Shown: one piece after another, positions 4,234-53,518 of the stretch
Position numbering within the stretch: position 1 is the first letter of the stretch
Layout of the letters: every line of letters starts with the position of its first letter
Assembly: GCA_009691255.1 (NCBI GenBank)
Contig: SHUT01000001.1
Coordinates: 865 to 64,864 of the forward strand
Length of the DNA stretch: 64,000 bases
Source of the DNA: Ilumatobacteraceae bacterium
GTDB taxonomy: Bacteria; Actinomycetota; Acidimicrobiia; Acidimicrobiales; Ilumatobacteraceae
Direction: 5' to 3'
Program-made: the position numbers and the translations under genes
Notes under the pieces: generated by a model
What the model saw: only the letters and a program-made list of their open reading frames with translations
Databases searched by the model: none
Told to the model about the DNA's origin: nothing

Positions 4234-4246
4234 ATCACGAGATCTA

Positions 4247-6226: not shown

Positions 6227-6243
6227 TAGTTACACTTCAAGAT

Positions 6244-6939: not shown

Positions 6940-6953
6940 AAAGAGAAACTACG

Positions 6954-8921
6954 CTAGTTCTGTGAGCGTCGATGTGCTGCTGCAAGTTCTGCAACCTCAC
7001 GCATGATTCGAGCGATGTCAAAATCTTTTGGTGTATAGACAGCCGCAACACCCACTTCTTTCATGCGCGCACGATCGTCTTCGGGGATAATGCCACCGAT
7101 AATAAGTGGAGCATCAACTCCTGCTTGGTGCAGTAACCGAATCACGGTTGGTACTAAAGATAAATGCGAACCAGAGAGAATCGACAAACCGATGACGTCA
7201 GGGTCTTCATCACGAGCACTCGCAGCGATTTGTTCTGGCGTCATACGAATACCGCTATAGACAACTTCCATACCAGAATCACGAGCAGCGACAGCGATTT
7301 GTTCTGCGCCATTGGAATGTCCATCTAGTCCTGGCTTGGCAACCAAGAACTTTGGTGGTCCACCAGGAATCGTTTTAACGAATGCCGCAACATCAGCCAA
7401 CTCTGTCGTGCGTCTGCCTACCGCAGCGCCCACCCCAGTCGGAGCCCTGAACTCTCCAAACACTTCACGCAACGCCTCTGACCATTCGCCGGTTGTGCCA
7501 CCAACCTGAGCGAGCGCAATAGATGGCTCCATGATGTTGTCTCCGCTCTGGGCTGCAGCCGAGAGGGCAGATAGCGCTGTTTTCACTGCCACATTGTCAC
7601 GGTTGGCACGCCACGCCACAGCATCAGCGACAATCTCTTTTTCAACTTCTGGATCAACTTTTAAGATGTTGTCAGCACCACCGAGTGGAGATTTTTCAGT
7701 CTCAGTAAATGTATTTACTCCCACAACAACCTGTTCGCCACTCTCTATCGCGCGAGTACGCTCAGCCATTGAGCTGACAAGTCGGCCCTTTAGTTCGTCA
7801 ACAGCGTTGAATGCGCCGCCGAGCGATAAAACATCTTGGAGCTCTGTCCATGCAGCTTCGCATAATTCTGAGGTGCGGGCCTCAATGACATGTGATCCGT
7901 CAAAGATGTCTTCGTGCTCAAGAAGATCTGTTTCAAAAGCCAGTACTTGCTGCATGCGTAATGACCATTGCTGATCCCAAGGTCGTGGCAAGCCGAGAGC
8001 TTCGTTCCATGCGGGTAACTGCACACTTCGAGCACGCGCATTTTTTGACAATGTCACTGCCAGCATCTCAAGAACTATTCGTTGCACGTTGTTTTCGGGT
8101 TGCGATTCAGTGAGGCCCAGTGAGTTCACCTGAACGCCGTATCGAAAACGGCGTACCTTAGGGTCTTGCACGTTGTATCGTTCGCGGGCAATGCGGTCCC
8201 AGAGTTGGGTAAAAGCACGCATTTTGCAGACTTCATCAACAAAGCGAATTCCGGCGTTGACGAAAAATGAGATTGATCCAAAGACTTGGTCAAATTGGTC
8301 AGGGCTAACTTGTCCACTTGCGCGCACAGCATCAAGAACATCGATTGCAGTCGCAAGCGAGAAGGCAATCTCTTGCACGGGTGTAGCACCGGCTTCTTGC
8401 AAGTGATACGAACACACATTCATCGGGTTCCATTTGGGTGCGTTATTGGCGCACCACGCAACCATGTCAACGATGAGACGCTTCGATGGCGCTGGTGGAA
8501 AAATGTATGTGCCGCGAGACAGGTATTCCTTGACGATGTCATTTTGCGTAGTGCCACGTAGTTGTGGGGGTGTCACGCCTTGTTCTTGTGCGTTGGCAAT
8601 GTATAGAGCAAGCAACCATGCCGCGGTCGCATTGATGGTCATAGACGTATTCATTTGGGCAGGGGGAATACCGTCTAACAATGTGCGCATGTGTCCGAGA
8701 TGCACAACCGGAACTCCGACTTTGCCGACTTCCCCGCGAGCTAGTTCGTGATCAGGGTCGTATCCAGTTTGTGTCGGAAGATCAAAAGCAATCGACAGGC
8801 CGGTCTGCCCTTTGGCCAAGTTGGTGCGGTACAACTCATTTGAGGCGCGTGCCGTGGAGTGTCCGGAGTATGTCCGAATCAACCATGGGTCGTCACGGCT
8901 GCGCTTGTCAGTGGATGCCAC
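6954..8921 (-). CDS. B12-dependent acyl-CoA mutase, fused catalytic and cobalamin-binding domains (MeaA/ethylmalonyl-CoA mutase-like)
   Basis: 655 aa. N-terminal IRTYSGHSTARASNELYRTNLAKGQTGLSIAFDLPTQTGYDPD. C-terminal B12 domain with GLDGHSNGAEQIA (DxHxxG-type). Confidence 0.8.
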   Translation of the reverse strand: MASTDKRSRDDPWLIRTYSGHSTARASNELYRTNLAKGQTGLSIAFDLPTQTGYDPDHELARGEVGKVGVPVVHLGHMRTLLDGIPPAQMNTSMTINATAAWLLALYIANAQEQGVTPPQLRGTTQNDIVKEYLSRGTYIFPPAPSKRLIVDMVAWCANNAPKWNPMNVCSYHLQEAGATPVQEIAFSLATAIDVLDAVRASGQVSPDQFDQVFGSISFFVNAGIRFVDEVCKMRAFTQLWDRIARERYNVQDPKVRRFRYGVQVNSLGLTESQPENNVQRIVLEMLAVTLSKNARARSVQLPAWNEALGLPRPWDQQWSLRMQQVLAFETDLLEHEDIFDGSHVIEARTSELCEAAWTELQDVLSLGGAFNAVDELKGRLVSSMAERTRAIESGEQVVVGVNTFTETEKSPLGGADNILKVDPEVEKEIVADAVAWRANRDNVAVKTALSALSAAAQSGDNIMEPSIALAQVGGTTGEWSEALREVFGEFRAPTGVGAAVGRRTTELADVAAFVKTIPGGPPKFLVAKPGLDGHSNGAEQIAVAARDSGMEVVYSGIRMTPEQIAASARDEDPDVIGLSILSGSHLSLVPTVIRLLHQAGVDAPLIIGGIIPEDDRARMKEVGVAAVYTPKDFDIARIMREVAELAAAHRRSQN

Positions 8922-8940
8922 ACCGTAAGTATGGCAATGC

Positions 8941-9621
8941 TCAGGTAGTTTTCTCTATCCGTGACGGGGCAAGGGCTTGTTTGAGACGTTTGAGATAGTC
9001 GTCACGAGGGAGTTCAGAGGCTCCAAGGCTTTGGAGATGTTGGGTCCACCACTGCGTATCAAGAAGAGTCATCTCGGTCATTTGCATTGCGCCGACGAGA
9101 GCCATCAGCGCCACCTTGGAAGCATCTCGCCGTCGATGAAACATTGATTCACCAGCAAATAATCCGTCAACACGAATTCCGTATAGACCACCGACGAGTT
9201 GGTCGTCTTGCCACACTTCAACGCTGTGCGCCCAGCCCAAGTCATGCAGCCGACAGTACGCCTCAATGAACTCCTCTGTGATCCAGTTGCCCTCTTTGTG
9301 AGTAGTGGAGCATGCGATCATGACATCACGAAATGCCTGATTAAAAGTGGTGCGCATCTTGCGAGCACTCTGACGCATTGAGCGAGTAATTCGTAAGTCG
9401 TTGAGTTCAAGAATTCCGCGCTGCACTGGCGAAAGCCATCCCAAGACAGATTGTTTATCATCTAGGTACATCGGAAAGATGCCGTGCATATAGGCATCAA
9501 GGATGGTCACTGGGGCAAGATCACCACCAATGCAGATGACGTCGTCAGTCGGGTCCCACTCATGGGCATCTGGAAAGTTCCAATGATTCTCACCGAGATC
9601 TTGCCTAGGTGTTAGTTGCAT
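8941..9621 (-). CDS. aat: leucyl/phenylalanyl-tRNA--protein transferase
   Basis: 226 aa with GGDLAPVTILDAYMHGIFPMY and ESMFHRRRDASKVAL, both typical of L/F-transferase. Confidence 0.75.
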   Translation of the reverse strand: MQLTPRQDLGENHWNFPDAHEWDPTDDVICIGGDLAPVTILDAYMHGIFPMYLDDKQSVLGWLSPVQRGILELNDLRITRSMRQSARKMRTTFNQAFRDVMIACSTTHKEGNWITEEFIEAYCRLHDLGWAHSVEVWQDDQLVGGLYGIRVDGLFAGESMFHRRRDASKVALMALVGAMQMTEMTLLDTQWWTQHLQSLGASELPRDDYLKRLKQALAPSRIEKTT

Positions 9622-9649
9622 ATGAGGAGTCTGGCGAGTGCGGGTCTGC

Positions 9650-10519
9650 TCAGTAGGTGTAAAAGCCTGCGCTTGTCTTGCGTCCGAGTTTTCCGGCGGT
9701 CACGAGACGACGCAATGTTGGCACTGCTGCGTAGTTGGGGTCTGCAAATTCAGCGTAGAGCGCGTCAAGAATCGAGACAGACGTGTCAAGCCCAACGAGA
9801 TCGAGTAAAGCGAACGGCCCCATCGGGAAGTTGCAACCACCTTTCATGGCGGTGTCGATGTCCTCCATAGATGCAGTGCCAGTTTCCCAGATTCGAACGG
9901 CGTTATTGAGATACGGGAACAACAACGCATTGACAATAAAACCAGCACAGTCTTTTACTTGAACGCCACTTTTGCCACACGCTGTAACAAACTCATTCGC
10001 CGTTGACATGGTGTCATCTGATGCAGTGATTGGGCGCACTACTTCAACAAGGGGCATTGCTGTTGCTGGATTAAAGAAGTGAATACCGCACACTTGGGCA
10101 GGGCGTTGGGTGGCCATTGCCATATCTACTACTGGGAGTGTGCTGGTGTTGGTAGCAAGAATTGCTGAAGGCTTCACAATCGTGTCGAGTTCTGCGAAGA
10201 GTTGTTTTTTTATGGCGAGATCTTCGACCACTGATTCAATAATGAGATCGCAATCAGCAAGGTCAGCAAGATTTGATGTTGCACTGAGGCGTGACAAGAT
10301 ATTTGCTTTATCGTCAGCTGTGATTTTTTCGCGTTGAACCTGCTTGTCAAGTCCCTTGGCGATGCTGGTGATCATCGCGTCGGCAGCAGATGCCTTGCGT
10401 GACCGAACGATAACCGTGAAGCCTGCCTTGGCCGCAACTTCGGCGAGCCCAGAGCCCATGATTCCGGAGCCCAAGATTCCGACGGTGGAGATTGTGTTTG
10501 CTTTGTGTTGTTCTGACAT
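9650..10519 (-). CDS. 3-hydroxybutyryl-CoA / 3-hydroxyacyl-CoA dehydrogenase
   Basis: 289 aa with NAD fold GILGSGIMGSG and a HFFNP motif. The length is typical of Hbd. Confidence 0.85.
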   Translation of the reverse strand: MSEQHKANTISTVGILGSGIMGSGLAEVAAKAGFTVIVRSRKASAADAMITSIAKGLDKQVQREKITADDKANILSRLSATSNLADLADCDLIIESVVEDLAIKKQLFAELDTIVKPSAILATNTSTLPVVDMAMATQRPAQVCGIHFFNPATAMPLVEVVRPITASDDTMSTANEFVTACGKSGVQVKDCAGFIVNALLFPYLNNAVRIWETGTASMEDIDTAMKGGCNFPMGPFALLDLVGLDTSVSILDALYAEFADPNYAAVPTLRRLVTAGKLGRKTSAGFYTY

Positions 10520-10568
10520 TTGATTGAGGGTAACAATTCAGACACCTTTGTCCCCTACCGTGTGATTC

Positions 10569-11330
10569 ATGGATACAACTACTCCCCACAGACTGGTTCC
10601 CCTGCAGGCCGTTCATAACTTCAGAGATATTGGTGGATACCTTGGCGAGGCTGATTTGATGGTCAAGAGGGGCGTGTTGTACCGCGCCGATGGGCTTTAT
10701 CGACTCACGGCGAGCGATATCGAGGTGGTGCGAACACTGGGCATTAAGACCGTTATTGACCTGCGTTCTGGTGACGAACTCAACAACGTTGGCACCTTCC
10801 CGCGCGAGGCCTATGAGGTGCAATTTCATCATGTGCCAATAATTGACACCACTTGGCAGCACAGCGATGTTCCAGATTTTGGTCAAGACACTGATTTCTT
10901 GATTTGGGCCTATACCGAGATGTTGTCAGAAGGTGCCGCCCAGTTTCAGCGCGCATTCTCCATTATTTCCGACTGGCCACAGACGCCGTTGGTGTATCAC
11001 TGTGCTGCTGGCAAAGATCGCACCGGTCTATTGACGATGTTGCTACTCGGAGTTCTTGGCGTCGATGATGACGTGATTGTGCGCGATTATGCATTATCAG
11101 AACCTGCGATGGTGCGAATGATGGAGTGGGCACACACTGAGTATCCAGATCTTGAGACACGCATGGCGGCTTCACCAAAGTATTTTCTGTCGGCAAATCC
11201 GCTCGCTATGACGCGGCTCATCAAAATGTTGCGCGAGCAGCATAAAGATTTTTATGGAATCGCAGCATCACTCGGAATCACTGAACCAGCAATTGAATCG
11301 CTGAAATCAATGATGTTGATTGCGAACTAG
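10569..11330 (+). CDS. protein-tyrosine phosphatase (Y_phosphatase3-like)
   Basis: CX5R active-site loop HCAAGKDRTG. 253 aa. Confidence 0.75.
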   Translation: MDTTTPHRLVPLQAVHNFRDIGGYLGEADLMVKRGVLYRADGLYRLTASDIEVVRTLGIKTVIDLRSGDELNNVGTFPREAYEVQFHHVPIIDTTWQHSDVPDFGQDTDFLIWAYTEMLSEGAAQFQRAFSIISDWPQTPLVYHCAAGKDRTGLLTMLLLGVLGVDDDVIVRDYALSEPAMVRMMEWAHTEYPDLETRMAASPKYFLSANPLAMTRLIKMLREQHKDFYGIAASLGITEPAIESLKSMMLIAN

Positions 11331-11340
11331 TTCAGGAGAT

Positions 11341-12198
11341 CTATTTTTCTGTAATTACTACAGATGCAATCTTTACTTCACGGCTCGGAGCACCACCGAG
11401 TTGACCACTGCCAGCGTTGAGGCCGATAATTGTTTTAGCGACATCAAGACCCTTGGTGACTTTGCCGAACACGACGTATGTTCCCTGGCCATCGAGTGCA
11501 GATGCGTTTGGTCCGGTGACAATAAAGAATTGTCCTCCAGCGCTGTTTGGCTCGTCAGTGCGGGCCATCACGATGTCGCCTTCAGAGTATTTGTAACCGC
11601 TGCCTTCGTCTTCAATGGTGTAGCCAGGGTCGTCTGTATTTGATTCGCCACCACCCTGGATGATGTCAATGCTGGGGTCTGTTCGAAAGATGAACGAGCC
11701 GTTGTAATACTTGTATCGCGACAAGGTGACGAAGTTGTTCACTGTCTTGGGTGTCTTGGTTGTGTCGAGGGCAATTTCGATTGCACCTTCTGATGTGTCA
11801 AAAGTCGCCGTGTAGGACTTTTTGGCGTCAATGCACATTGGCGGTGCCTTGGTGAAGTTTGTAGTGCGTACTGCCGTGCCATCTGTTGGCGGGCACTTCG
11901 TATCACCCTCAATTTGTGCGCCTGGCGTGGTGGACAATGTGGTGTCTGATGTGGCAACCGTGGTGTCTGATGTGGCAACCGTGGTGTCTGATGTGGCAAC
12001 CGTGGTGTCTGTAGTACTTGTGGAATCAGTCGTGATGAAGTATTTCGACACTGCCCAGAGCGCAAGTATGGCCACGGGGATACCGATACCATAGCGAATT
12101 GCCCGCTGTTTGATGACGGCATTTCGCTGTGCTTTTTGGCGCCCTTCACGAGCGATGTTTCGGTTTGCCTTCTTGCGTTCGCGTTTATCTGTTCCCAT
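11341..12198 (-). CDS. membrane-anchored cyclophilin-type peptidyl-prolyl isomerase
   Basis: Basic N-terminus, one TM helix, a Thr-rich repeat linker, then a cyclophilin domain (FIFRTDPSIDIIQGG, GGQFFIVTG). Confidence 0.8.
   Translation of the reverse strand: MGTDKRERKKANRNIAREGRQKAQRNAVIKQRAIRYGIGIPVAILALWAVSKYFITTDSTSTTDTTVATSDTTVATSDTTVATSDTTLSTTPGAQIEGDTKCPPTDGTAVRTTNFTKAPPMCIDAKKSYTATFDTSEGAIEIALDTTKTPKTVNNFVTLSRYKYYNGSFIFRTDPSIDIIQGGGESNTDDPGYTIEDEGSGYKYSEGDIVMARTDEPNSAGGQFFIVTGPNASALDGQGTYVVFGKVTKGLDVAKTIIGLNAGSGQLGGAPSREVKIASVVITEK
11939..12011. repeat. perfect 21-bp tandem repeat (3 full copies plus a 10-nt partial copy) inside the PPIase linker
   Basis: The unit GTGGTGTCTGATGTGGCAACC occurs at 11939-11959, 11960-11980 and 11981-12001. 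It encodes TTVATSD x3 on the minus strand. Confidence 0.95.
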
Positions 12199-42903: not shown

Positions 42904-44217
42904 GTGCAGGCTGGTTGTTCGGCAATCACTTGCAAGGGCGCTGGTGTACCCTCAAATCAACAGCTGTTCGAACGATCAGCAGCAGTTATCCCGGGTGGCG
43001 TCAATTCCTCGATTCGTGCATTTCGCGCCGTTGGTGGGACGCCCTTTTTAGTAGCGCGTGGTTCTGGTGCATATTTATATGACGTCGAAGGTCGACAGAT
43101 GATTGACCTTGTTCAAAGTTATGGTGCGATTATTTTGGGTCATGCCCATCCAGCGGTCACGGCTGCTATCACCGCTGCTGCTGTTGACGGAACATCTTAT
43201 GGTGCCCCAACGCCACGAGAAATGAAACTAGCCGAAGCAATTTCTGATCGCGTACCAAGTTGTGAGCGAGTGCGTCTGATGAATAGCGGAACTGAAGCGA
43301 CGAGCACTGCTGTTCGTTTGGCTCGCGGTGCAACCGGACGCAAACGCATCGTGACATTTCATGGCAATTTTCATGGGGCAACTGATGCGTTATTGGTGGC
43401 AGGCGGCAGTGGTGTCGCCACGCTGGGTTTGCCAGGTACTGCTGGTGTGCCAGAAGAAACAGTTGCCAACACATGGGTGGTGCCGTATAACGTTGTTCCG
43501 CATTTGGATAATGATGTTGCGGCTGTCATCGTTGAACCTGTTGCCGCCAATATGGGAGTAGTTGCCCCAGTACCAGGATTTTTAGAAGGCTTACGTGCCG
43601 AATGTGATCGCGTTGGCGCACTGTTAATTTTCGATGAGGTCATTACTGGATTTCGAATTGGACTTGGTGGGGCCCAAGCCAAGTATGACATTCGGCCAGA
43701 CATCACTTGTTTTGGAAAAGTAATTGGCGGAGGTTTGCCGATTGGTGCAGTTGGTGGCTCTGCTGACGTCATGAATCACTTATCGCCGCTCGGCCCTGTG
43801 TTCCATGCCGGAACTTTGGCGGGCAATCCGCTCGCAACTGCAGCTGGATTGGCGGCGCTCAACGAACTAGTTCCTGATGTCTATATCGAACTTTCAGCAC
43901 GGGCACGCCGATTGAGTGCGTTGCTTCGAGACGCATGCGCAAGCAACGGCATTGTGGCTCAGTTTCCTGTGGTGGGTACTTTGATAGGGATGCACTTTGG
44001 CCCAGGGCTACAAAATAATGCACCACAAAACTTCGTTGATGCAAAGACCACTGACGAGGCCTTGTACGCCAAGGTTTTCCACGCGATGTTGTCTGCTGGG
44101 GTGGCGATGGCGCCAGGTGCATACGAAGCACTATTTGTCGGACTCAGCCATGACGACGCGGTGATTAATCGAATTGGTGAAATTGCGCATGAGGCGTTGC
44201 AATGGAACAGTCACTAA
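42904..44217 (+). CDS. hemL: glutamate-1-semialdehyde 2,1-aminomutase
   Basis: IPGGVNSSIRAF, FDEVITGFR and the PLP lysine in FGKVIGGG. The start is uncertain: GTG 42904, or GTG 42871 overlapping the hemB stop. Confidence 0.9.
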   Translation: MQAGCSAITCKGAGVPSNQQLFERSAAVIPGGVNSSIRAFRAVGGTPFLVARGSGAYLYDVEGRQMIDLVQSYGAIILGHAHPAVTAAITAAAVDGTSYGAPTPREMKLAEAISDRVPSCERVRLMNSGTEATSTAVRLARGATGRKRIVTFHGNFHGATDALLVAGGSGVATLGLPGTAGVPEETVANTWVVPYNVVPHLDNDVAAVIVEPVAANMGVVAPVPGFLEGLRAECDRVGALLIFDEVITGFRIGLGGAQAKYDIRPDITCFGKVIGGGLPIGAVGGSADVMNHLSPLGPVFHAGTLAGNPLATAAGLAALNELVPDVYIELSARARRLSALLRDACASNGIVAQFPVVGTLIGMHFGPGLQNNAPQNFVDAKTTDEALYAKVFHAMLSAGVAMAPGAYEALFVGLSHDDAVINRIGEIAHEALQWNSH

Positions 44218-44819
44218 ACCGCCGCGTAGCAATTATTTTTATATTGCTTGCCGTGGTGGCTGTGTCAGTACTGTTTCTTTTTACGCACGGATCAGGTTCT
44301 GCGTCAGTTACGAGTAATGCGACAAAGCGACGCATAGATCTATTCGCTTCAGCAACAACCGTGACAGCAGACGCCGGCTGGTCAGTATTTGAGGGCCGAA
44401 CTATCGGAAAAATGCAATTGACTCTTGCCGATGACCGAGTCATTACCATCTCTGACGGAACATATGTCGATGACTACAACTCGGTAACAGCCTGCACCAA
44501 TTTTCAAGAGCAGGCGGCGTGTGTTCTTGTCGCAGACATGCTTGGCGATGCCGTGGTGTGGTTTGCACTCGTGCAGGCTGATTCAAAAAATGGAACCAAA
44601 CAACTCCGTTTACCGGGCCTTGTTGATATGCAGAGTAATGGAGATGAAGGTGTTTTGGGCAACGGTTGGATAGTTGCGCTTGGTGTTGGAGTAAAACGGG
44701 TGTGCCCCAACTCAGAAACAACATCGTTGCGTGATTTCATCACGCGTTTTGGAGGTCCCGCTGCTGTGTCAATTGTTGATCTAGAGCAGGACATTGTCGT
44801 GCAAGTTGTGTGCATTTAA
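44202..44819 (+). CDS. membrane-anchored hypothetical protein
   Basis: N-terminal TM helix (VAIIFILLAVVAVSVLFLF) and a 4-Cys extracytoplasmic domain. Overlaps the hemL end by 16 nt. Confidence 0.45.
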   Translation: MEQSLNRRVAIIFILLAVVAVSVLFLFTHGSGSASVTSNATKRRIDLFASATTVTADAGWSVFEGRTIGKMQLTLADDRVITISDGTYVDDYNSVTACTNFQEQAACVLVADMLGDAVVWFALVQADSKNGTKQLRLPGLVDMQSNGDEGVLGNGWIVALGVGVKRVCPNSETTSLRDFITRFGGPAAVSIVDLEQDIVVQVVCI

Positions 44820-46102
44820 GCGTTAGGAAACAAGCGCACAATTTGTGCGGCTGCTTTATACGCCACCTCGGCTGTGCCTACTTCGTCAGGTCGTAAAAGA
44901 TTCGCCATGATTCGTAGCACCCACTCCATGAGTGTGCGCGACTGTAAACCAACCCGCGAGAGTTCGCGCATCAGCACAGGCCGACCGATGATGCGCGCGA
45001 AGAGCCTTGCCACTTTGAAGTACTGACCGTACTCGTCTTCAATCATTTTTGAGTATTGCTGCAATGCAACAGGGTCTCCGCTGACAAGTGCATCGTGTAA
45101 ACAATCTGCAGCCATGTGCGCTGTTTCGTAGGCGTAGTCAATTCCTTCACCATTAAACGGGTTAACGCTGCCAGCGGCATCACCAATAACAATGTGCGTT
45201 GGTCCAATCTTGGGACCAACCGAACCACCCATTGGAATACGACCACTCGTTGCTTTGCATGTGGGCGCATCTGGAGTGATGCCCCAGTTGTCAGCAATCA
45301 TGTGTGCATACGAATCGAGCATGTGTGTTGTGTTGACGCTTTTAAAATCACGAAAAGTAGAGAGTAGGCCTACGCCAATATTGACCGTGCCATCACCAAC
45401 TGGGAATATCCACCCGTATCCCGGCATTGAGTTCCCGTTGCGATCCTTGACGTCAAGTGCAGATTCGATCCATGGTTCGGCATGACGAGGACTTTCCCAA
45501 TATGTACGGATTGCAGTGCCGTATGGCCATTTTTTGGCGCGCGCTGTTCCGAGTGCGCGACCAAACCGTGAGTTTGCCCCGTCTGCAACTATTACGTATT
45601 TAGCGTGTATTTCAAATGTTGTGTTGTCAGCCTTTGATGTGATCACTGCACCACGAACGAATCCGCGATCGATAATCGGCGTGAGTGCTTCATGTCCCTG
45701 CAGAAGATGAGCACCCGATGACTCCGCATTTTTTGCAACCATCATATCGAGTTCGCGGCGACGCACAACATAACCATGTTGTGGATAAATCGGGTGTTCG
45801 GGCCATTGCATCTCGAGTGCTTTGCCGTGTGCCGTTGCGCGCAAACCTTCGTAGCGATGAAACTGTGTTAGTTGATCACCGAGTCCCATGTCATGAAGTT
45901 GTTTGACAGCACGAGGCGTCAGACCGTCACCACAAGTTTTTTCACGTGGGAAAGATTTTTTTTCGATGACTGTGACATCGTGCCCGAGTTGAGAAAGCCA
46001 GTATCCAGCAGCGGAGCCTGCTGGTCCGCCGCCAACTACGAGAACTTCTGTTTCTCGAGCTGGGGCATTTAGTGCCACAGGGGCAGAATCAATGTCAGTC
46101 AT
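44816..46102 (-). CDS. FAD-dependent geranylgeranyl reductase family protein (MenJ-like menaquinone reductase candidate)
   Basis: VLVVGGGPAGSAAG dinucleotide fold, 428 aa, CGDGLTPRA motif. Next to respiratory genes. Confidence 0.75.
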   Translation of the reverse strand: MTDIDSAPVALNAPARETEVLVVGGGPAGSAAGYWLSQLGHDVTVIEKKSFPREKTCGDGLTPRAVKQLHDMGLGDQLTQFHRYEGLRATAHGKALEMQWPEHPIYPQHGYVVRRRELDMMVAKNAESSGAHLLQGHEALTPIIDRGFVRGAVITSKADNTTFEIHAKYVIVADGANSRFGRALGTARAKKWPYGTAIRTYWESPRHAEPWIESALDVKDRNGNSMPGYGWIFPVGDGTVNIGVGLLSTFRDFKSVNTTHMLDSYAHMIADNWGITPDAPTCKATSGRIPMGGSVGPKIGPTHIVIGDAAGSVNPFNGEGIDYAYETAHMAADCLHDALVSGDPVALQQYSKMIEDEYGQYFKVARLFARIIGRPVLMRELSRVGLQSRTLMEWVLRIMANLLRPDEVGTAEVAYKAAAQIVRLFPNA

Positions 46103-46144: not shown

Positions 46145-46969
46145 TTAGCCAGCGATTGATGCGCGTGGTTCTGTGCCGACGACGCCTGGTTTGTTGGGCA
46201 GACTGGCAAAGTCTTTGTCAATCGAGTCAAAGCTTGTTGACCCAGCCTCAAGACCTATGAAGATTTCTGATTCTGGTGAACACCATGTCTCGTATTCTTC
46301 TTTCCATTGTTCGCTTTTGGGGTCTGCGCCACCAATCACGTAGCGCTCATGACATACCACTGAAAGAATTTCTTCGTCTGTCAAACCGCCACCAGCTTTT
46401 TCGCCTTGCATCGGCATCGGGTTTCCGTTGTAAGACAAAGGTGCATGTGCACCACCTTCGCGATTAGGGTTGCCATAGATTGCGAGTCCGTCAGAAACAT
46501 ATTTTTGGCTGCCGGTGTATACAAAGTTGAGCATGTCCTCGATCTCGGGGAACGTCTCGAGAACTTCTCCTTGATACAGCACTCGACCAGCACCACCAGC
46601 GCCTTGAGCACCGTGGCAACCAGCGCAACCACCAAAAACTTCTGCGCCAATACTGAGTGGTCCAGCCTCTACGACGTTGGAAGGTTTGAGGGCGATGAAA
46701 TACATAAAAGCCCATAATGGCAACAGACTCAGGGTGGCCATTGCCCAATAAGGAATCTTTTTGCGAGCATTTGCGGCGGCCACGTATGGGGCAACTGGCT
46801 TGGGTGTTTGAGCCACTACTGGGGCAACGGGCTTGGGTGCCACAGCTGGTGCGTTGCTGGTTGTGGCCGGAGTAGTGCCAGAAGCGGGTTGACCAGAAGC
46901 AGTTTCTCCGGCTGCTGCGGCCCGACGCTCTTGCGAGCGCTTCAGCAGGTGTTCGGGGATTTCGGTCAC
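46145..46969 (-). CDS. membrane-anchored monohaem class I cytochrome c with an N-terminal EIPEHLLKR motif
   Basis: A single CxxCH (GCAGCHG), distal Met region NPMPMQG, one TM helix and a Pro/Ala-rich linker. The N-terminus is MTEIPEHLLKRSQERR. Confidence 0.8.
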   Translation of the reverse strand: MTEIPEHLLKRSQERRAAAAGETASGQPASGTTPATTSNAPAVAPKPVAPVVAQTPKPVAPYVAAANARKKIPYWAMATLSLLPLWAFMYFIALKPSNVVEAGPLSIGAEVFGGCAGCHGAQGAGGAGRVLYQGEVLETFPEIEDMLNFVYTGSQKYVSDGLAIYGNPNREGGAHAPLSYNGNPMPMQGEKAGGGLTDEEILSVVCHERYVIGGADPKSEQWKEEYETWCSPESEIFIGLEAGSTSFDSIDKDFASLPNKPGVVGTEPRASIAG

Positions 46970-47218
46970 CTCTTAACGATAGACAATCGGGGACCCACTG
47001 AAGGAATCATGTGATAAATAGGCGCCAACAGGTTGCTCGCGTTTTGCACAAAAGCACAACCACCCGTGATGGACGGGTTGGCACGAGCGGGCAAGGTGAC
47101 TTTGGTGACATGCCGAGAAATAACGGTTTCGTCTGTAATCCTGACTAGTGTTCTCAGTGGTTTCACTACTCAAAACGAACACGCAATTGTCCCTCAGTCC
47201 GGAGAACTAGCCGCCATC

Positions 47219-47695
47219 ATGCTTGCTATCAATATTTTGAAATGGCCAGGAGTCAATCAGGCTTTTGTGTTCTCTTTTGCTGCCACGTTGGTGTTTATCT
47301 ACGGCATCATGGCCTACGGAAAACGTCGCAAAGCGGGCACTGCGGTGTCATGGGGTGAGGCGATGTTCGGATCGGTATATGTGTTTTTTGTGCTGTTCTT
47401 GGCGTTTGGTGTGGTTCCTCACCAGTGGATTGATCATGCTGACAAAAATCTCGGATGGCGACAAGACAAGTTATTGCAGGGTCCTTTTGACATCTTGAAG
47501 GCCAAAGCCTTTGGCGGTCATTTCCCTTTTACAATTAGTTATGAAGCAGTGCGAGACATTGTCGTTGTAGTTATTCATGTGATTTTTATGGGCATTTTGA
47601 TTGCACTCGGTGCGTGGTGGCAAAAGCGTGGACAGGCTGTGACAAAAGAAATCGAAACTTCTCCATACGGTCGTCCGTTAGTGAAGAAGGCGTAG
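47219..47695 (+). CDS. small integral membrane protein, unknown function, first gene of the Rieske/cyt b cluster
   Basis: About 158 aa from ATG 47219 with 3-4 TM helices. The ORF-track start at 47033 is less likely, because that N-terminus is non-hydrophobic and odd in composition. Confidence 0.5.
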   Translation: MLAINILKWPGVNQAFVFSFAATLVFIYGIMAYGKRRKAGTAVSWGEAMFGSVYVFFVLFLAFGVVPHQWIDHADKNLGWRQDKLLQGPFDILKAKAFGGHFPFTISYEAVRDIVVVVIHVIFMGILIALGAWWQKRGQAVTKEIETSPYGRPLVKKA

Positions 47696-47707
47696 CAGGA
47701 TTTATCC

Positions 47708-48121
47708 ATGACACGTACTGACGCCAATCCTCCGATGCCAGAGTGGTCCGATGAGTATCAACTCGTTGAAGTGGATGCCGAATATCTTGGTAAGGCCGTG
47801 AAGCCGAAACAATTCATCCATATCGATCAGAGCGAATGCATTATGTGCGAGGGCTGTGTAGACATTTGCCCATGGAAATGCATCCACATGGTGTCCACGG
47901 ATGCGATTGCGGAGTCAACTGGCATGGAAATGCCCGGAGCAGATCCGTCAGATCATGTTCTCTTTATTATTGATGACGATGTGTGCACGCGGTGTGCGCT
48001 CTGTGTTGATCGTTGCCCAACCGGAGTCATCATCATGGGCAAGGTAGGAGAACCTGCCGCAACTGGAGATAGTCACACTCGTACCAACGCCCACGGCTAC
48101 GCCTACGGTCTACGCCTCTAA
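47708..48121 (+). CDS. 2x[4Fe-4S] ferredoxin-domain protein
   Basis: CIMCEGCVDICP and CTRCALCVDRCP. 137 aa. Ends 17 nt upstream of the cytochrome b6-like gene. Confidence 0.8.
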   Translation: MTRTDANPPMPEWSDEYQLVEVDAEYLGKAVKPKQFIHIDQSECIMCEGCVDICPWKCIHMVSTDAIAESTGMEMPGADPSDHVLFIIDDDVCTRCALCVDRCPTGVIIMGKVGEPAATGDSHTRTNAHGYAYGLRL

Positions 48122-48138
48122 GATAAACGGAACACCTC

Positions 48139-48921
48139 ATGGCAAAAGTAATTGATAGTCCCAGACCGACACTCAAAGAACGGGCCGCCAAGCTTGGGCA
48201 GGCCACGTTGGCAAGTCAAGCATGGACATCTATTTTCAGACCAGGCTCAATCTTTCGCAAGGGCTACACCGACAGTCCGCGAAACCGTTCATATGTCATT
48301 ATGAACTCGGTTTTGTACCACTTGCACCCAGTCAAAGTGAAGCGTCACGCAGTCAAAGTGAGCTACACACTGTGTTTGGGTGGACTGAGTTTCTTCCTAT
48401 TTATTTTGCTGACGGTAACGGGTATTTTCTTGATGTTTTTCTATCGCCCAACAGCCACAAATGCGTGGGAAGATATTCAGACCTTGCAGACATCTGTGAC
48501 GTTTGGTCTGATGGTTCGCAACATGCACAGATGGGGTGCGCACCTCATGGTCTTGACGGTCTTTTTGCACATGGCGCGCGTGTTTTATCATGGTGCATAC
48601 AAGCCACCACGTGAGTTCAACTGGGTGATTGGTGTTGTATTGTTGACGCTGACATTACTGCTGTCTTTCACTGGCTATTTGCTGCCGTGGGATCAACTTG
48701 CACTCTGGGCTGTAACGGTAGGTACCAACATGATGGGTTATTCGCCTGTCATTGGTTCGCAGGTCAGATTCGTATTGCTAGGCGGTGTCGAAATCGGTTC
48801 GGAAACACTCTTGCGATGGTATGTATTGCATGTCCTCCTGTTCCCATTCATCATTGTGATTTTTATGGCCGTGCATTTCTGGCGCGTCCGTAAAGATGGC
48901 GGAATCTCGGGACCACTGTGA
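48139..48921 (+). CDS. cytochrome b6-type protein (N-terminal four-helix half of cytochrome b)
   Basis: Haem ligands in [12 protein letters not shown] and LHVLLFPF...[21 protein letters not shown] at the haem c_i cysteine position. The C-terminus [10 protein letters not shown] is as in b6 and Bacillus QcrB. Confidence 0.85.
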
Positions 48922-48937
48922 GAGAGGTGACTGCGCA

Positions 48938-49672
48938 ATGACTGAAATTCCAGAGCACCTTCTCAAGCGTGCACAAGAAGCACGTGACAAAGCAGCCGCA
49001 GCGGCCAGAGCAGATGCACCATCAGATGCAGCAGGAGATTCTCGCATCCCGCAACATTTGCTTGATCGCACTCGTGCGGCCCGTGCTGGCGGTGCAGTGG
49101 CGGTAGCAGATAAGCCTGATGCAGTAGTGGCGAGTGCACCGGCGAGTGGTGGATTGCCATTGGCCGCAGGTCCTGGTGGACACACGCAACGACTTCTCAC
49201 AGTGGTGAAGTCTGGCTCTATTCAAGAAGCCAAGACATCACCAATTGACAAAGTACACACATGGCCACATTTGCTTGCCGTCGAGTTTGTCGCTTCGCTA
49301 GCGTGCACGGCATTTTTGTTTGTTTTTTCTTGGGTCGTAAATGCGCCTTTGTTGCAAGCAGCCAACTTCAACCGTACTCCGAACCCTTCGAAGGCTCCAT
49401 GGTATTTCTTAGGTCTTCAAGAACTCCTCACGATGTTCCATCCGATGATTGCGGGCGTGACCTTGCCAGGTGTCGGACTCATCGCCCTTATCTTGGCGGC
49501 CTATCTCGATAAGAACCCATCAAATAAACCTGAAGATCGAAAATTCATTACAAGCCTGATGACAGTGCATCTCATGTTCTGGGCGGTTTTAGTTATTATC
49601 GGATCATTTTTTCGCGGACCTGGTTTCAACTTCACCTTCCCGTGGCGCGACGGAATTTTCTTTGAGTTTTAA
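48938..49672 (+). CDS. cytochrome b C-terminal domain protein (subunit IV-like) with an N-terminal extension carrying two IPxHLLxR motifs
   Basis: KAPWYFLGLQELL (PEWY-equivalent region), 3 TM helices, own SD (GAGAGG) and ATG 48938. The N-terminus is MTEIPEHLLKRAQEAR...RIPQHLLDRTRAAR. Confidence 0.8.
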   Translation: MTEIPEHLLKRAQEARDKAAAAARADAPSDAAGDSRIPQHLLDRTRAARAGGAVAVADKPDAVVASAPASGGLPLAAGPGGHTQRLLTVVKSGSIQEAKTSPIDKVHTWPHLLAVEFVASLACTAFLFVFSWVVNAPLLQAANFNRTPNPSKAPWYFLGLQELLTMFHPMIAGVTLPGVGLIALILAAYLDKNPSNKPEDRKFITSLMTVHLMFWAVLVIIGSFFRGPGFNFTFPWRDGIFFEF

Positions 49673-49708
49673 AAAGCACAAGACAGAACGGATTTAGGCA
49701 ACACAGCA

Positions 49709-50569
49709 ATGAGTACAGCAGTCATCATCTCACTAGTAATCGCCGCAGCAGTCGTGCTGGGCGCTGCAGTGCTGTTCACGTCTGCTCGCCGCAGCGGGGT
49801 ACGTGGTGGTGGTGTGCTGTCGCGCGAGACCCGGCAGCGTGACCGCAAAACACAGAGTGCGCCTGATGCAGAAATTTCGGGCAGGGATATTGAGCGCGAG
49901 GCAAACGCAACTCGTAGCGGAGTGTTGGTCAAGGCATCACGACCGGAGCTACAGGAGTGGTCACCTCCAGATGAAGAAACTCTTGGTGTCACTCGGCGAC
50001 AGTTCTTTAATCGCGCCACAGTTACATTGATGACGGCAAGTTTGGGTGGGTTTGGAGCGGCGTGCATCGGGTTTTTGTGGAAAGGTGCAACGGGCGGATT
50101 TGGTTCCAAGATTTCTGTCGGAAAAATTGATGACGTGATTCAGTCAATTCGAGTCAATAAAGGTTTCTTGTATCTCTCTGAAGCGCGTTCGTGGGTAACG
50201 GAGTATCCAAAAGATGCAATCGGCAAAGCAAAACTTATCTACGGCAAACAAGTACCCGTGTACTCAGGCATGGAAGCCGGAGTCGTGGCGCTCTACCAGA
50301 AGTGTCCACATCTTGGTTGTCGTGTTCCGGAGTGCAAGAGTTCGCAGTGGTTCGAATGCCCGTGTCATGGTTCGCAATACAATCGCGTCGGTGAAAAAAA
50401 AGGTGGACCAGCGCCACGCGGAATGGATCGTTTTGGTGTATCAATCACTAATGGCGTGCTGGTGATCGACACTGGCGCAGTATTCGCTGGTCCCGCAATC
50501 GGGACAAACACCACAGGGCAAGAGGCCGAAGGGCCCCATTGCATAGGCACTGTCGGAGGTCACCACTGA
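49709..50569 (+). CDS. Rieske [2Fe-2S] protein
   Basis: CPHLGCRV and CPCHGSQY boxes. N-terminal TM helix and a long linker. Confidence 0.9.
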   Translation: MSTAVIISLVIAAAVVLGAAVLFTSARRSGVRGGGVLSRETRQRDRKTQSAPDAEISGRDIEREANATRSGVLVKASRPELQEWSPPDEETLGVTRRQFFNRATVTLMTASLGGFGAACIGFLWKGATGGFGSKISVGKIDDVIQSIRVNKGFLYLSEARSWVTEYPKDAIGKAKLIYGKQVPVYSGMEAGVVALYQKCPHLGCRVPECKSSQWFECPCHGSQYNRVGEKKGGPAPRGMDRFGVSITNGVLVIDTGAVFAGPAIGTNTTGQEAEGPHCIGTVGGHH

Positions 50570-51630
50570 TGCTCTCGTCAGTCAGCACATCTATCGCAAC
50601 AGTGATCCTGCTGATTGCAGTTGGAGGATGGATCCTCTATGCCATCTTTAATGCGCGCGCAACACGTGCAGAAGTTGGCTCAGAGATTGAGCTTGCTGCG
50701 AACCGCAAAGAGTATTACGACGACGAGATTCTGGAGGGGCGCAAGATTGAGCGCACTCAGTTATTGGGCATTCTTTTCCTGGCCATTGTTACTGTTGCGC
50801 TTCCGCTGTACTGGGTGCTCGAACCCAGTCGACAAGCCGGAGCGATCGTTGGCTTTGATAAGAGATTCGTGAATTGGGGTGCAGGGCTTTTTGCTCCGAC
50901 AGCAGAAGGTGGATTCAACTGCGCCGGATGTCACGGTGGCATGAAGGCAACGGGTGGAGTCGCACCATTCGCCATCACAGATCCAAAGACAGGCGAAGTT
51001 AAATCAGTGAACTGGAAAGCTCCTGCGTTGAACACCGTGCTCTATCGATTTACTGAAGAGGAAATACGTTTCGTCTTGAACTACGGACGACCGTTCTCTC
51101 CGATGTCGGCGTGGGGAACAATTGGTGGTGGTCCAATGAACGATCAGCAGATCACTACCTTGATCTCGTATATGAAGAGCATTCAGATTCCGCGTGATAA
51201 CTGCGCCAATCTAAAAGATGATCCCAAGACGTGCGCAGGCGGAACGTTGCCGATTGACAAGAACGCCGAACTCCAAGCAGAAGCAGAGCGACTTGTTGCT
51301 GCCGGAACGTATGGTTCGCTCGGAGAAGCATTTTTTAATCTCAATCTGTATGGCGGTGGTTACTCGTGCGCGCGTTGTCACACCAAGGGATACTCATACG
51401 GAGATCCACAAGTCACCGGCGGCGGCGCATTTGGACCAAACCTTACGGGTGGGTCGACTGTGCGTCAGTTTCCAAATCAAAAAGACATGCTGGATTTCAT
51501 TAAGGGCGGTTCTGAATTAGGTAAGCGCTACGGAGAACAAGGTCAAGGCAGTGGTCGCATGCCAGCGTTTGGTGGGCTATATACAGAGAGTCAACTCACG
51601 ACCATTATCGAATACGTGCGGGGGTTGTGA
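50569..51630 (+). CDS. membrane-anchored dihaem cytochrome c
   Basis: Two CxxCH motifs (CAGCHGG, CARCHTKG) and an N-terminal TM helix. The ATG overlaps the Rieske stop (TGATG). GGAGG lies upstream. Confidence 0.85.
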   Translation: MLSSVSTSIATVILLIAVGGWILYAIFNARATRAEVGSEIELAANRKEYYDDEILEGRKIERTQLLGILFLAIVTVALPLYWVLEPSRQAGAIVGFDKRFVNWGAGLFAPTAEGGFNCAGCHGGMKATGGVAPFAITDPKTGEVKSVNWKAPALNTVLYRFTEEEIRFVLNYGRPFSPMSAWGTIGGGPMNDQQITTLISYMKSIQIPRDNCANLKDDPKTCAGGTLPIDKNAELQAEAERLVAAGTYGSLGEAFFNLNLYGGGYSCARCHTKGYSYGDPQVTGGGAFGPNLTGGSTVRQFPNQKDMLDFIKGGSELGKRYGEQGQGSGRMPAFGGLYTESQLTTIIEYVRGL

Positions 51631-52448
51631 TGGCGTTGGCGTTGTTGGCGATTAACTGGGAACCAGAAATTCGCGGAATCCTTGTTGTTCTCATCATGGT
51701 GATGTGTCTGATTGGCGGAACCTATTTGGTTATGGCCACTAATGTTGGCGTACGACTCGGATTCATGATTGTGGTAGCAGGGTTGGCCGGATGGATGATG
51801 CTGATGGCCGCTGTGTGGTGGATATACGGCATCGGTCTGAAGGGTGAAATGCCGTCATGGAAACCAGCGGCCCCTATCACGATTGTGCGAGATGGCTCAC
51901 TGTTGAGTAGCGCCGAAGTTGTTGATGAAGCCATCGTGACTGACGGGCAAGCACCAATGGAAGCTGCGGCCACGGTGAGTCGTGCGCTGACTGCCCAAAA
52001 GTGGATCACTTTAGATGAAGCCGATCCTCGTCGCGGGCAAGCCGCCGCCGCATCTGATGACATCTTGCAAAATCTCACAAAAGAGTTTGCAGCAGGTGAA
52101 TATGCAACCGTTGCGGTGTATGACCGCGGCGGCGATCGGTATCCAAAAATCAATAAGTCACTTGACTTCTTGGCATTTTTTCATAAGCCCCACTATGCGC
52201 TAGTCGAAGTTGCGCCAGTTATCGCGCAGCGCACTGAACCCGGGCGAGCACCAGCACGACCTATTGTTGACACCAAGCAACCGCATCGCTATGTGGTGAT
52301 GATTCGAGATCTTGGAAAACGACGTCAACCGGCAATCTTCATCGCGTTTGGTGCTGGACTAATTTTTGCTCTGATGTGTTGGTTATTGCATCGTCGCGAC
52401 CAGTTGTCTCGCATTAACCGTGCCGCGCTTAATCCGGCTGATATCTAG
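51627..52448 (+). CDS. integral membrane protein of unknown function, coupled to the dihaem cytochrome c gene
   Basis: 273 aa with three N-terminal TM helices, a soluble loop of about 150 aa and a C-terminal TM helix. GTGATG overlap with the cytochrome c stop. nuoA starts 9 nt after its stop. Confidence 0.55.
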   Translation: MMALALLAINWEPEIRGILVVLIMVMCLIGGTYLVMATNVGVRLGFMIVVAGLAGWMMLMAAVWWIYGIGLKGEMPSWKPAAPITIVRDGSLLSSAEVVDEAIVTDGQAPMEAAATVSRALTAQKWITLDEADPRRGQAAAASDDILQNLTKEFAAGEYATVAVYDRGGDRYPKINKSLDFLAFFHKPHYALVEVAPVIAQRTEPGRAPARPIVDTKQPHRYVVMIRDLGKRRQPAIFIAFGAGLIFALMCWLLHRRDQLSRINRAALNPADI

Positions 52449-52457: not shown

Positions 52458-52931
52458 GTGGGTCAGTATCTTCCCGTCATTGCATTGATGATTGTTGCAA
52501 TCTTGTTTGGTGCAATCAGTTTTATCGCCTCCGGATTATTTGCGCCTCGTCGACCAAGTTCTGCCAAAGAAGCACCATATGAATGCGGAATTCTCGCCAG
52601 TCAAGAACCAACACAGAGATTTCCTGTAAGTTTTTATGTGGTGGCAATGTTGTTCATCATGTTCGATATCGAAATCATCTTTACATATCCGTATGCAGTA
52701 GATCGGGAGTTTCTGGGCACATACGGATTCTTTGAGATGATTACGTTTAGCGCTATTTTATTTGTGGCGTTTGTCTACATGATTGCGCGCGGTGCCCTTG
52801 AGTGGGGCCCAATCCACAAACATCAACCGCTTGACACTTCGCTTGAAGGAGCAATCTCAAGTACGCGCACAAGCACTTCAACGATTAAGCGCGTTGGCCA
52901 TGAAGGCCGCAACGAGACAGTCGCCGCCTGA
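52458..52931 (+). CDS. nuoA: NADH-quinone oxidoreductase subunit A
   Basis: 3 TM helices, PYECG motif, first gene in the nuoA-L order. 157 aa with an extended C-terminus. Confidence 0.85.
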
Positions 52932-53518
52932 TGGGAGTAGTACGAAACGTTCGTGATGATGGGTTAGGCGGACTCGAGCATAATTTTCTGACCGCTCGCG
53001 TTGAAGATCTAGTGAACTGGTCACGTTCGAGGTCTAGTTGGGGAGTGACTTTTGGGCTTGCGTGTTGTGCAATCGAGATGATGGCAACTGGTGCGTCGCA
53101 CTATGACTTAGCAAGATTTGGAATGGAAATATTCCGAGCTTCTCCGCGGCAGGCAGACATCATGATTGTCGCTGGTCGTGTCAGTCAAAAGATGGCGCCG
53201 GTACTGCGTCAGGTATACGACCAGATGATGGAACCAAAGTGGGTCATCTCAATGGGCGTGTGCGCATCAAGTGGCGGAATGTTTAATAACTATGCCATCG
53301 TTCAGGGCGTAGATCAGATTGTGCCCGTTGACGTTTATGCGCCAGGCTGTCCGCCCACACCAGAAACACTGATTCATGCCATCGAAACATTGCACCAACT
53401 CATCGAAGACGAAACTATTTTGCATCGTCGAAAAGAGCAGGGTGGTGGTGCAAACGTACACATTCTCGAAGTACCTGCAGGCGCAAATGGTGTGTCCATC
53501 AATTTTGGATCGAAGTAG
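52931..53518 (+). CDS. nuoB: NADH-quinone oxidoreductase subunit B
   Basis: [10 protein letters not shown] and [12 protein letters not shown] (N2 cluster ligands). Confidence 0.95.

Follow-up and report, generated by a model that had tools for sequence, protein, structure and literature searches.

A Rieske/cytochrome b6-type gene module with a small two-cluster ferredoxin-like protein, conserved across the class Acidimicrobiia and joined to the complex I operon

In this study, a 64-kb stretch of DNA from an Ilumatobacteraceae bacterium (hereafter the window) was analysed with respect to a module of eight genes at positions 46145-52448, which encodes a Rieske protein, a cytochrome b split into a b6-type subunit and a subunit IV-like protein, two cytochromes c, two membrane proteins and a ferredoxin-like protein with motifs for two [4Fe-4S] clusters. 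We consider it likely that this module specifies a class-wide respiratory Rieske/b6-type menaquinol:cytochrome c oxidoreductase, the equivalent of complex III, in which the iron-sulphur (FeS) protein is a cytoplasmic-side subunit. Protein families were assigned by Pfam and NCBIfam profiles, and solved structures were compared through sequence matches to the PDB. The open reading frames (ORFs) and the profiles bear out a preliminary description of this DNA, which had named these eight genes, their positions and their character. They are given here together with the two genes that follow them (aa, amino acids; TM, transmembrane; SD, Shine-Dalgarno):

46145..46969, minus strand: monohaem cytochrome c, membrane-anchored, 274 aa (PF00034, 23.5 bits, above the cut-off)
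47219..47695, plus strand: small 3-TM protein of 158 aa without known family (conservation, SD-like GGAGAA, TM prediction)
47708..48121, plus strand: 2x[4Fe-4S] ferredoxin-like protein, 137 aa (Fer4 families at E of about 1e-10)
48139..48921, plus strand: cytochrome b6-type subunit, 260 aa, 4 TM helices (PF00033 at E 1.9e-47)
48938..49672, plus strand: subunit IV-like protein, 244 aa, 3 TM helices (PF00032 at E 6.5e-6; ExtQ model, 54 bits)
49709..50569, plus strand: Rieske [2Fe-2S] protein, 286 aa (PF00355; CPHLGC, CPCHGSQY)
50569..51630, plus strand: dihaem cytochrome c with CAGCH and CARCH (PF13442, PF00034)
51627..52448, plus strand: 273-aa membrane protein, 3 TM helices (no family match)
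52458..53518, plus strand: nuoA and nuoB, the start of the complex I operon (ORFs, translations)

Cytochrome b relatives were sought in a one-genome-per-species collection, in which more than 590 genomes encode a close relative. Synteny was counted over the 80 best loci among these, searched with the window's proteins, and the presence of each gene was counted only over loci long enough to show it. The seven plus-strand genes of the module and, after them, nuoA and nuoB were colinear and on one strand in all 80 loci, and none of these genes was missing from any locus of sufficient length. Gene by gene, the 158-aa TM protein was present in 65/65 loci, the ferredoxin-like gene in 69/69, the dihaem cytochrome c in 64/64 and the 273-aa protein in 61/61, with nuoA directly downstream in 60/60 and nuoB in 57/57. 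The ferredoxin and both membrane genes are thus syntenic with cytochrome b, a point on which the preliminary description had made its claim depend. The divergent monohaem cytochrome c was found in 59 of 60 loci and lay on the minus strand in 68 of 69. All 80 loci belong to Acidimicrobiia (Ilumatobacteraceae, Microthrixaceae, Acidimicrobiaceae and unclassified metagenome-assembled genomes, MAGs) and include both MAGs and isolates; the top match is a lake MAG labelled acIV, with a cytochrome b that is 99% identical. The window itself belongs to a freshwater acIV lineage of Acidimicrobiia. Since the genes are colinear in 80/80 loci and none is missing, the module is neither an artefact nor a peculiarity of one genome. 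It is a conserved arrangement of the class Acidimicrobiia, and the earlier view of it as an oddity in an otherwise actinobacterial-looking genome gives way to that of a class norm, with the cytochrome b carried by more than 590 species representatives.

Median protein identities were computed across 78 species loci. They were highest for b6 (88%), followed by NuoB (81%), the ferredoxin-like protein (80%), subunit IV (72%), the dihaem cytochrome c (62%), the Rieske protein (60%), the 158-aa protein (59%), the monohaem cytochrome c (53%) and the 273-aa protein (53%), making the ferredoxin-like protein the second most conserved protein of the module after b6. The conserved 9-nt junction between the end of the 273-aa gene and nuoA, together with the shared strand, suggests one long respiratory transcription unit. 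Separately, the full Acidimicrobiia gene order was also seen in MAGs labelled "uncultured Bifidobacterium sp." (L010) and "Gammaproteobacteria bacterium" (L047), which are probably mis-binned contigs or mislabelled bins.

Direct reading of the gene junctions led to the correction of three gene starts, at 47219, 48938 and 50569. For the small TM protein, sequence and conservation make the ATG at 47219 the most likely start, rather than the TTG at 47033 that opens the longest ORF. The b6 gene ends with a TGA at 48919-48921, just after GISGPL, and an SD-like GAGAGGTG precedes the subunit IV ATG at 48938; a longer ORF would begin at 48896, and with the start placed at 48938 there is therefore no overlap with b6. 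The dihaem cytochrome c ATG at 50569 overlaps the Rieske stop codon as TGATG (the longer ORF runs from 50539), the start of the 273-aa gene overlaps the dihaem cytochrome c stop codon, and a gap of 17 nt separates the end of the ferredoxin-like gene from the start of b6.

The window b6 aligns end to end and without internal gaps with the b6 of solved cytochrome b6f structures, at an offset of 44. Its H130, H144, H231 and H246 correspond to His86, His100, His187 and His202 of b6f, the four haem-b ligands; its C79, in the motif LCLGG, falls on Cys35, the position of the haem ci cysteine; and both proteins end in GISGPL. The preliminary description had reported just such a b6-type end and a CLGG at the ci position in a 260-aa protein, and the alignment upholds both. 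LCLGG was retained in 117 homologues of b6 (motifs in b6 and in the ferredoxin-like protein were counted in 120 homologues each), and Cys79 is a candidate for the attachment of haem ci. Cytochrome b is divided after helix D, with four TM helices predicted in b6 and three in subunit IV. Subunit IV has, as described earlier, its own SD, its own ATG and a long N-terminal extension, which is predicted to be cytoplasmic and is about 110 aa in length, and it carries the Qo motif APWY (KAPWYF in the window), counted 79 times across the 80 loci. The b6/subunit IV split is genuine, because the stop codon and the separate SD and ATG are visible in the window and because the split recurs in the 80 loci, all of which share it along with gene order and strand; the frameshift that might have explained it is thereby excluded.

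With regard to family placement, the module does not encode a QcrCAB complex, because both actinobacterial models fell far short of their cut-offs, with 120 bits for QcrB (NF050120, cut-off 500) and 16.8 bits for QcrA (NF050121, cut-off 275), and no QcrC match was obtained among solved structures; the preliminary description was correct in this respect. The complexes of Mycobacterium and Corynebacterium share with it the phylum, menaquinol-type respiration, a dihaem cytochrome c as acceptor and a Rieske protein with extra N-terminal TM helices. Their QcrB, however, is unsplit, 535-573 aa long and without the ci cysteine, compared with 260 aa for the window b6, the gene order is different, and the window's dihaem cytochrome c has no detectable similarity to solved QcrC.

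Its Qo motif and its nearest relatives point to membership of the module in the APWY clade, or subfamily G. The nearest representatives outside the group at 50% identity carry APWY, many of them unsplit and without CxGG and others split with WCMGG. The groups A1/A2 of Baymann et al. 2012 reportedly correspond, more or less, to the APWY clade. The clade is also approximately subfamily G of Dibrova et al. 2013/2017 (PMC5600118). Kao and Hunte 2014 recorded split cytochrome b in Ilumatobacter coccineum and in Rubrobacteridae, placed five actinobacterial split forms, including that of Ilumatobacter, in the PEWY-cyt c or the APWY clade, and noted that CxGG occurs in the APWY clade and that no APWY complex had been characterised as of 2014 (PMC4122944); our literature search found no later characterisation of an APWY-type complex. 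The preliminary description had presented a split cytochrome b in an actinobacterium as unusual, and the split is real, but it had already appeared in that sequence survey. Similarly, the split and CxGG that were taken as the hallmark of b6f and Firmicute complexes are both present, but the nearest relatives are not those complexes; they belong to the APWY clade. The window module resembles other members of the clade in its APWY Qo motif, in the split b6 and subunit IV (7 TM helices in total) and in the CxGG cysteine. It is unlike them in having LCLGG in place of the usual WCMGG, in its aerobic Actinomycetota host, in which it appears to be a housekeeping complex joined to nuo and not an extra copy, and in its stand-alone dicluster protein, two membrane proteins and shared tail motif, none of which we found described.

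The b6f complex and the b6c complexes of Firmicutes and heliobacteria share with the window module the residue-for-residue match of b6, the 14-residue spacing of the helix D histidines, a separate subunit IV and a Rieske protein. Heliobacteria likewise use a dihaem cytochrome c. The differences lie in the Qo motif, which is APWY in the window and PEWY or PDWY in these complexes, in the N-terminal extensions of the window's b6 (about 55 aa) and subunit IV (about 110 aa), in the lack of cytochrome f, PetG, PetL, PetM and PetN in the window, and in the ferredoxin-like protein, which is operon-encoded in the window and not a transient soluble partner.

The ferredoxin-like protein is 137-138 aa long in 118 of its 120 homologues, and 119 of the 120 hold two CxxCxxCxxxCP motifs. 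All eight cluster cysteines and long flanking stretches are invariant in the alignments, and the N- and C-terminal tails are conserved as well. Prediction found neither a TM helix nor a signal peptide, so the protein would be cytoplasmic. A small ferredoxin also stands upstream of b6 in a divergent lineage (P0224). Among distant cytochrome b relatives (alignment A2), three loci (L083, L085 and L086, with cytochrome b at 51-55% identity) have in the ferredoxin's position, directly upstream of b6, a gene for a protein of 482-666 aa, the stop codon of which overlaps the cytochrome b start codon. These large FeS flavoproteins of sister complexes (480-690 aa overall) contain Fer4_20, Pyr_redox_2 and a C-terminal dicluster domain, and NCBIfam assigns them to a GltD-like "NAD(P)-binding protein". 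The window ferredoxin aligns with their last approximately 130 residues at 35-44% identity, and the identity extends beyond the cysteines, as in CVDICPW.C..MV and DD.VCTRCALC..RCPTG. Compared with 118 large subunits, it gave a median of 57.8 bits, with the best match always C-terminal; it scored 69 bits against the L085 protein, 42 bits against the genome's own NuoI and about 30 bits against other dicluster proteins. The profile scan detected no Fer4_20 or Pyr_redox_2 domain in the window ferredoxin. From these similarities we conclude that the small ferredoxin would correspond to the FeS domain at the cytochrome b-proximal end of the GltD-like subunit, with the flavin/NAD(P) module absent. 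The large subunit of L085 (GCA_016199375.1, a Chloroflexi MAG, 3209-11638), at 482 aa, is some 200 flavoprotein residues short, which means that intermediate sizes exist.

The surroundings of these distant loci are varied. In L085, the large-subunit gene comes after a 941-aa molybdopterin oxidoreductase with formate-dehydrogenase-like domains and CcmE. In L086 (GCA_047974625.1, an Acidimicrobiales MAG, 135-10449), a second type of Rieske/b6 complex was seen, with the order cytochrome c, 591-aa GltD-like FeS flavoprotein, b6 without CxGG, subunit IV, Rieske protein and cytochrome c, and it adjoins COX1, COX2 and a 787-aa cytochrome b/Fer4/FlpD-like protein. The top 120 homologues of the 666-aa L083 protein came from Chloroflexota, Dehalococcoidales, NC10 and Syntrophales, with no anammox names among them; the link of the ferredoxin to anammox bacteria consequently rests on shared architecture and the literature. 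Database entries in which the ferredoxin and b6 are fused were considered as proof of their association and set aside, as P0022, P0035, P0093 and P0224 are frameshifted calls with out-of-frame linkers. P0003 is the only clean in-frame ferredoxin-b6 fusion and, coming from a single 4.9-kb contig, is not strong evidence.

The Rieske protein consists of an N-terminal TM helix, a charged cytoplasmic loop, the twin-arginine motif TRRQFF, a second TM helix and an external cluster domain. CPHLGC was found in 74/74 loci, and in box II the serine is present in 74/74 and the tyrosine in 68/74. Its best PDB match is 9rk4, which, we assume, is among the Rieske proteins of Kuenenia stuttgartiensis reported in PMC12954380. 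Serine and tyrosine in the Rieske box constitute a high-potential signature (PMC3509893), and the Kuenenia Rieske proteins have potentials of +303 and +335 mV (PMC12954380). A putatively high-potential Rieske protein in a probable menaquinone organism would be the very pairing that prompted the bifurcation proposal for anammox bacteria (PMC12954380). Both cytochromes c and the Rieske protein are predicted to be membrane-anchored. The dihaem cytochrome c, for which no solved QcrC was found among the PDB matches, starts with a 2-TM hairpin around a charged cytoplasmic loop of about 37 residues, and the Rieske hairpin encloses a charged cytoplasmic loop of about 80 residues; these loops would add cytoplasmic mass beside the FeS protein. 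The monohaem cytochrome c has a cytoplasmic tail of about 75 aa, a TM helix at residues 76-94 and an external CAGCH domain, and is likely an acceptor or a shuttle towards a terminal oxidase.

The two remaining membrane proteins gave no Pfam, NCBIfam or PDB sequence match, even at E <= 10. In the 273-aa protein, a hydrophilic domain of about 165 aa separates two N-terminal TM helices from a third helix at the C-terminus, and both this protein and the 158-aa protein are candidate lineage-specific accessory subunits or assembly factors. Moreover, a motif of the form (M/V)TEIPEHLLKR constitutes the N-terminus of both subunit IV (48938-48970, plus strand) and the monohaem cytochrome c (46930-46969, minus strand), and subunit IV has a second copy, RIPQHLLDR, at 49046-49072 (plus strand). 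These three matches are the only ones within the 64-kb window. The motif recurs in 79 of the 80 related loci, is absent from the distant relatives L081-L086, and lies in tails predicted to be cytoplasmic; it may be a shared docking peptide that ties the cytochrome c to the complex.

The preliminary description had also held that neither of the compared complex types has an operon-encoded ferredoxin-type subunit. Such a protein is indeed encoded here, but the idea is not new, as the anammox Rieske/cytochrome b complexes of the APWY group have an FeS flavoprotein subunit of the NAD(P) oxidoreductase kind, an architecture noted more widely in subfamily G (PMC5600118, PMC12954380). In common with the Kuenenia stuttgartiensis complexes Kuste4569-4574 and Kustd1480-1485, the window module has a split b6 with the ci cysteine, the Ser/Tyr high-potential Rieske signature, a cytoplasmic FeS subunit encoded beside cytochrome b, and an N-terminal histidine and C-terminal Arg-Lys in cytochrome b at compatible spacing. 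Unlike them, it possesses only the two-cluster domain and no FAD/NAD(P) module, has a dihaem and a monohaem cytochrome c with no hexa- or octahaem cytochrome and no HAO-like subunit, and belongs to an aerobic heterotroph. The likeness of the dicluster domain was tested against Chloroflexota and Acidimicrobiales homologues, not Kuenenia sequences.

Regarding the histidine, the N-terminal extension of b6 (about 55 aa, on the n-side) is conserved in the clade alignment and carries an invariant H61 in HLHP. H61 stands 190 residues from R251-K252 in the window and most relatives, and 204 residues from the corresponding Arg-Lys where relatives have a loop insertion of 14 residues. The latter distance is exactly that found in the two Kuenenia cytochromes b (His43/Arg247 and His62/Arg266-Lys267), where AlphaFold3 models have these residues holding an extra haem b at the dimer axis, beside the first FeS cluster (PMC12954380). 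The spacing is suggestive, in that H61 and R251-K252 may match the extra-haem residues of Kuenenia; the invariant H61 motif also occurs in relatives without the FeS subunit.

If the module works as a complex III, menaquinol would be oxidised at a Qo site made by b6 and subunit IV (APWY). The first electron would pass through the Rieske [2Fe-2S] cluster to the dihaem cytochrome c, from there to the tethered monohaem cytochrome c and finally to a terminal oxidase, which is not in the window, while the second would cross the membrane by way of the two b haems and probably of haem ci on Cys79, as in a Q cycle. The 137-aa protein would be a fixed subunit on the cytoplasmic side, equivalent to the membrane-proximal dicluster domain of the GltD-like subunit minus its flavin/NAD(P) module, and its two [4Fe-4S] clusters would form a short electron branch beside haems bH and ci. 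The protein, having no flavin site, cannot alone connect to NAD(P)H, and its strong conservation implies that the clusters matter. The assumption of forward operation comes from the genetic context, with genes for haem and quinone upstream of the module and complex I after it. The window and its relatives directly show the gene content, the motifs, the homology and the conservation; association of the subunits, their cofactors and the direction of electron flow would follow as outlined here.

Several points weigh against this account. The margin of similarity between the ferredoxin and the large subunits is modest, at about 58-69 bits against 42 for NuoI, and evolution may have gone either way, by loss of the flavin module or by fusion of the ferredoxin to a GltD-like protein. 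The unsplit APWY relatives that were examined show no FeS neighbour, so the FeS subunit is not a clade-wide trait. AlphaFold2 gave unusable models both for the ferredoxin with 44 homologues (pLDDT 49.5) and for the P0003 ferredoxin-b6 fusion (pLDDT 50.2, pTM 0.29), because the alignments hold only close relatives. As for haem ci, LCLGG has neither the tyrosine before the cysteine (YCxGG) nor the tryptophan of WCMGG; tyrosine precedes the cysteine in every experimentally confirmed haem ci case, and WCMGG is usual in the APWY clade (PMC4122944). Finally, Kao and Hunte suggest that APWY complexes run in reverse (PMC4122944), which makes forward operation here an assumption based on context.

A reverse-running or bifurcating complex, rather than a plain Q-cycle complex III, is in our estimation unlikely. 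In the bifurcating version, menaquinol oxidation would be pulled by the high-potential Rieske branch and the second electron pushed via the low-potential b haems, and possibly an extra haem at His61, to the [4Fe-4S] clusters and on to a low-potential cytoplasmic acceptor; in the reverse version, the clusters would pass electrons from a cytoplasmic donor into the Qi/ci site. Either would amount to the anammox proposal minus the NAD(P) module, and the features shared with that system speak for it: the high-potential Rieske signature C.CHGSQY in a menaquinone context, 9rk4 (presumably from Kuenenia) as the best solved Rieske match, the resemblance of the ferredoxin to the FeS domain of GltD-like subunits, and the strong constraint on the eight cluster cysteines. 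The fit of His61 and R251-K252 to the Kuenenia extra-haem residues, by spacing in the AlphaFold3 models (PMC12954380), and the association of APWY with reverse operation by Kao and Hunte (PMC4122944) lean the same way. However, a flavin/NAD(P) site is lacking, the conserved neighbourhood offers no candidate acceptor gene, the His61 motif also occurs in relatives without an FeS subunit, and the anammox mechanism is itself a model-based proposal. The aerobic heterotroph hosts and the joining of the operon to complex I point instead to ordinary respiration. That the clusters serve as a working cytoplasmic electron port, whether as a low-potential exit (bifurcation) or as an entry at the Qi/ci site, seems to us doubtful to a similar, marginally smaller degree. 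As an entry, such a port would constitute a built-in ferredoxin:quinone reductase, as has long been debated for b6f cyclic electron flow. In either case the TEIPEHLLKR tails of subunit IV and the cytochrome c would dock on the same cytoplasmic assembly.

Unlikely to about the same degree is that the 2x[4Fe-4S] protein shares only a transcript with the complex and is not a subunit at all. It would then be a free soluble ferredoxin or a factor for assembly or maturation, and could act in attaching haem ci, in delivering FeS clusters or in modifying menaquinone. The absence of a TM helix or signal peptide would suit such a protein, the AlphaFold2 attempts yielded no usable model of binding, and haem ci maturation is unknown outside cyanobacteria and plastids (PMC5600118), a task in which a conserved cytoplasmic redox protein encoded next to b6 could serve. 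Against this, with 137 aa and conserved tails the protein is much larger than free dicluster ferredoxins, and its 80% median identity exceeds that of the Rieske protein, subunit IV and both cytochromes c. In addition, the sister operons have its counterpart as the last domain of a large subunit whose translation is coupled to that of cytochrome b, and all subunits of Kuste4569-4574, including such a large one, reportedly co-migrate in experiments (de Almeida et al. 2016, as cited in PMC12954380).

A role in extracellular or metalloid reduction, as an ExtOPQ-type module and not in aerobic respiration, is very improbable. Geobacter ExtOPQ, made up of a Rieske protein, a cytochrome b and a membrane protein, and the window module are both split APWY-type modules; the window b6 passes the ExtP equivalog NF040969 (309.6 bits, cut-off 290), subunit IV matches ExtQ, and public Acidimicrobiales records (P0026, P0091) give the b6 the PGAP name "selenite/tellurite reduction operon b-type cytochrome ExtP". 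The subunit IV score, however, is 54 bits against a cut-off of 150, and the module is flanked by haem biosynthesis genes on one side and by the complex I operon on the other. The extHIJKLMNOPQS cluster is defined by the porin ExtI, the rhodanese ExtH, the selenocysteine cytochrome ExtKL and the cytochromes ExtN and ExtM with 10 and 12 haems (PMC5877670), and none of these partners was found in the window or the 80 loci. The match to the ExtP model is attributable to shared APWY-clade ancestry and not to function, and the ExtP name on the Acidimicrobiales b6 is probably a systematic over-annotation, which would mislead metabolic reconstructions from metagenomes. Lastly, the database fusions P0003, P0022, P0035, P0038, P0093 and P0224 might be taken to imply that the split between b6 and subunit IV, or the ferredoxin as a gene of its own, came about through an error in sequencing or assembly. 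This is hardly credible, since all of these except P0003 are frameshifted calls with arginine-rich out-of-frame junk at the junction, 80 independent assemblies show the split, and its stop, SD and ATG can be read in the window.

The literature search found no earlier characterisation of this subunit set, in agreement with the preliminary description. What appears to be new is that a minimal 2x[4Fe-4S] subunit is recognised and related to the large one, that eight genes form a fixed set joined to nuo across the class, that two membrane proteins are specific to the lineage, and that subunit IV and the monohaem cytochrome c share a tail motif. Current ideas on APWY complexes lean on hard-to-grow anammox bacteria and on structure models. 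The module analysed here is a pared-down form of such a complex, conserved throughout a class of Actinomycetota as its bc-type complex and encoded directly upstream of complex I. Freshwater acIV and Microthrix-type lineages belong to this class, as do cultured aerobes such as Ilumatobacter, so that tractable aerobic material is available. With it one may ask if these complexes work by a forward Q cycle, if the FeS domain serves as a redox port or is a relic, and if the extra haem that has been predicted exists.

Upstream of the module lie rex, hemA, hemC, hemD, hemB, hemL and a MenJ-like gene, and on the other side the nuo genes continue downstream on the same strand to the window end (64000). 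The MenJ-like gene is located as follows:

44816..46102, minus strand: geranylgeranyl-reductase-family flavoprotein resembling MenJ (TIGR02032, 238 bits, above the cut-off)

The MenJ model itself gave 336 bits for this protein, below its cut-off of 700. The MenJ-like gene and the rex-hemACDB-hemL group are consistent with a menaquinone- and haem-dependent respiratory neighbourhood. Scans of the window for tRNA and Rfam families gave no matches, and a promoter/terminator scan scored no better than shuffled sequence. Between these upstream genes, a 205-aa ORF at 44202-44819 (plus strand) overlaps hemL at its end and abuts the convergent MenJ-like gene at 44816-44819; its product matches no family and has a single hydrophobic stretch, at the N-terminus, and it is kept in 26 related loci at only 35-79% identity.

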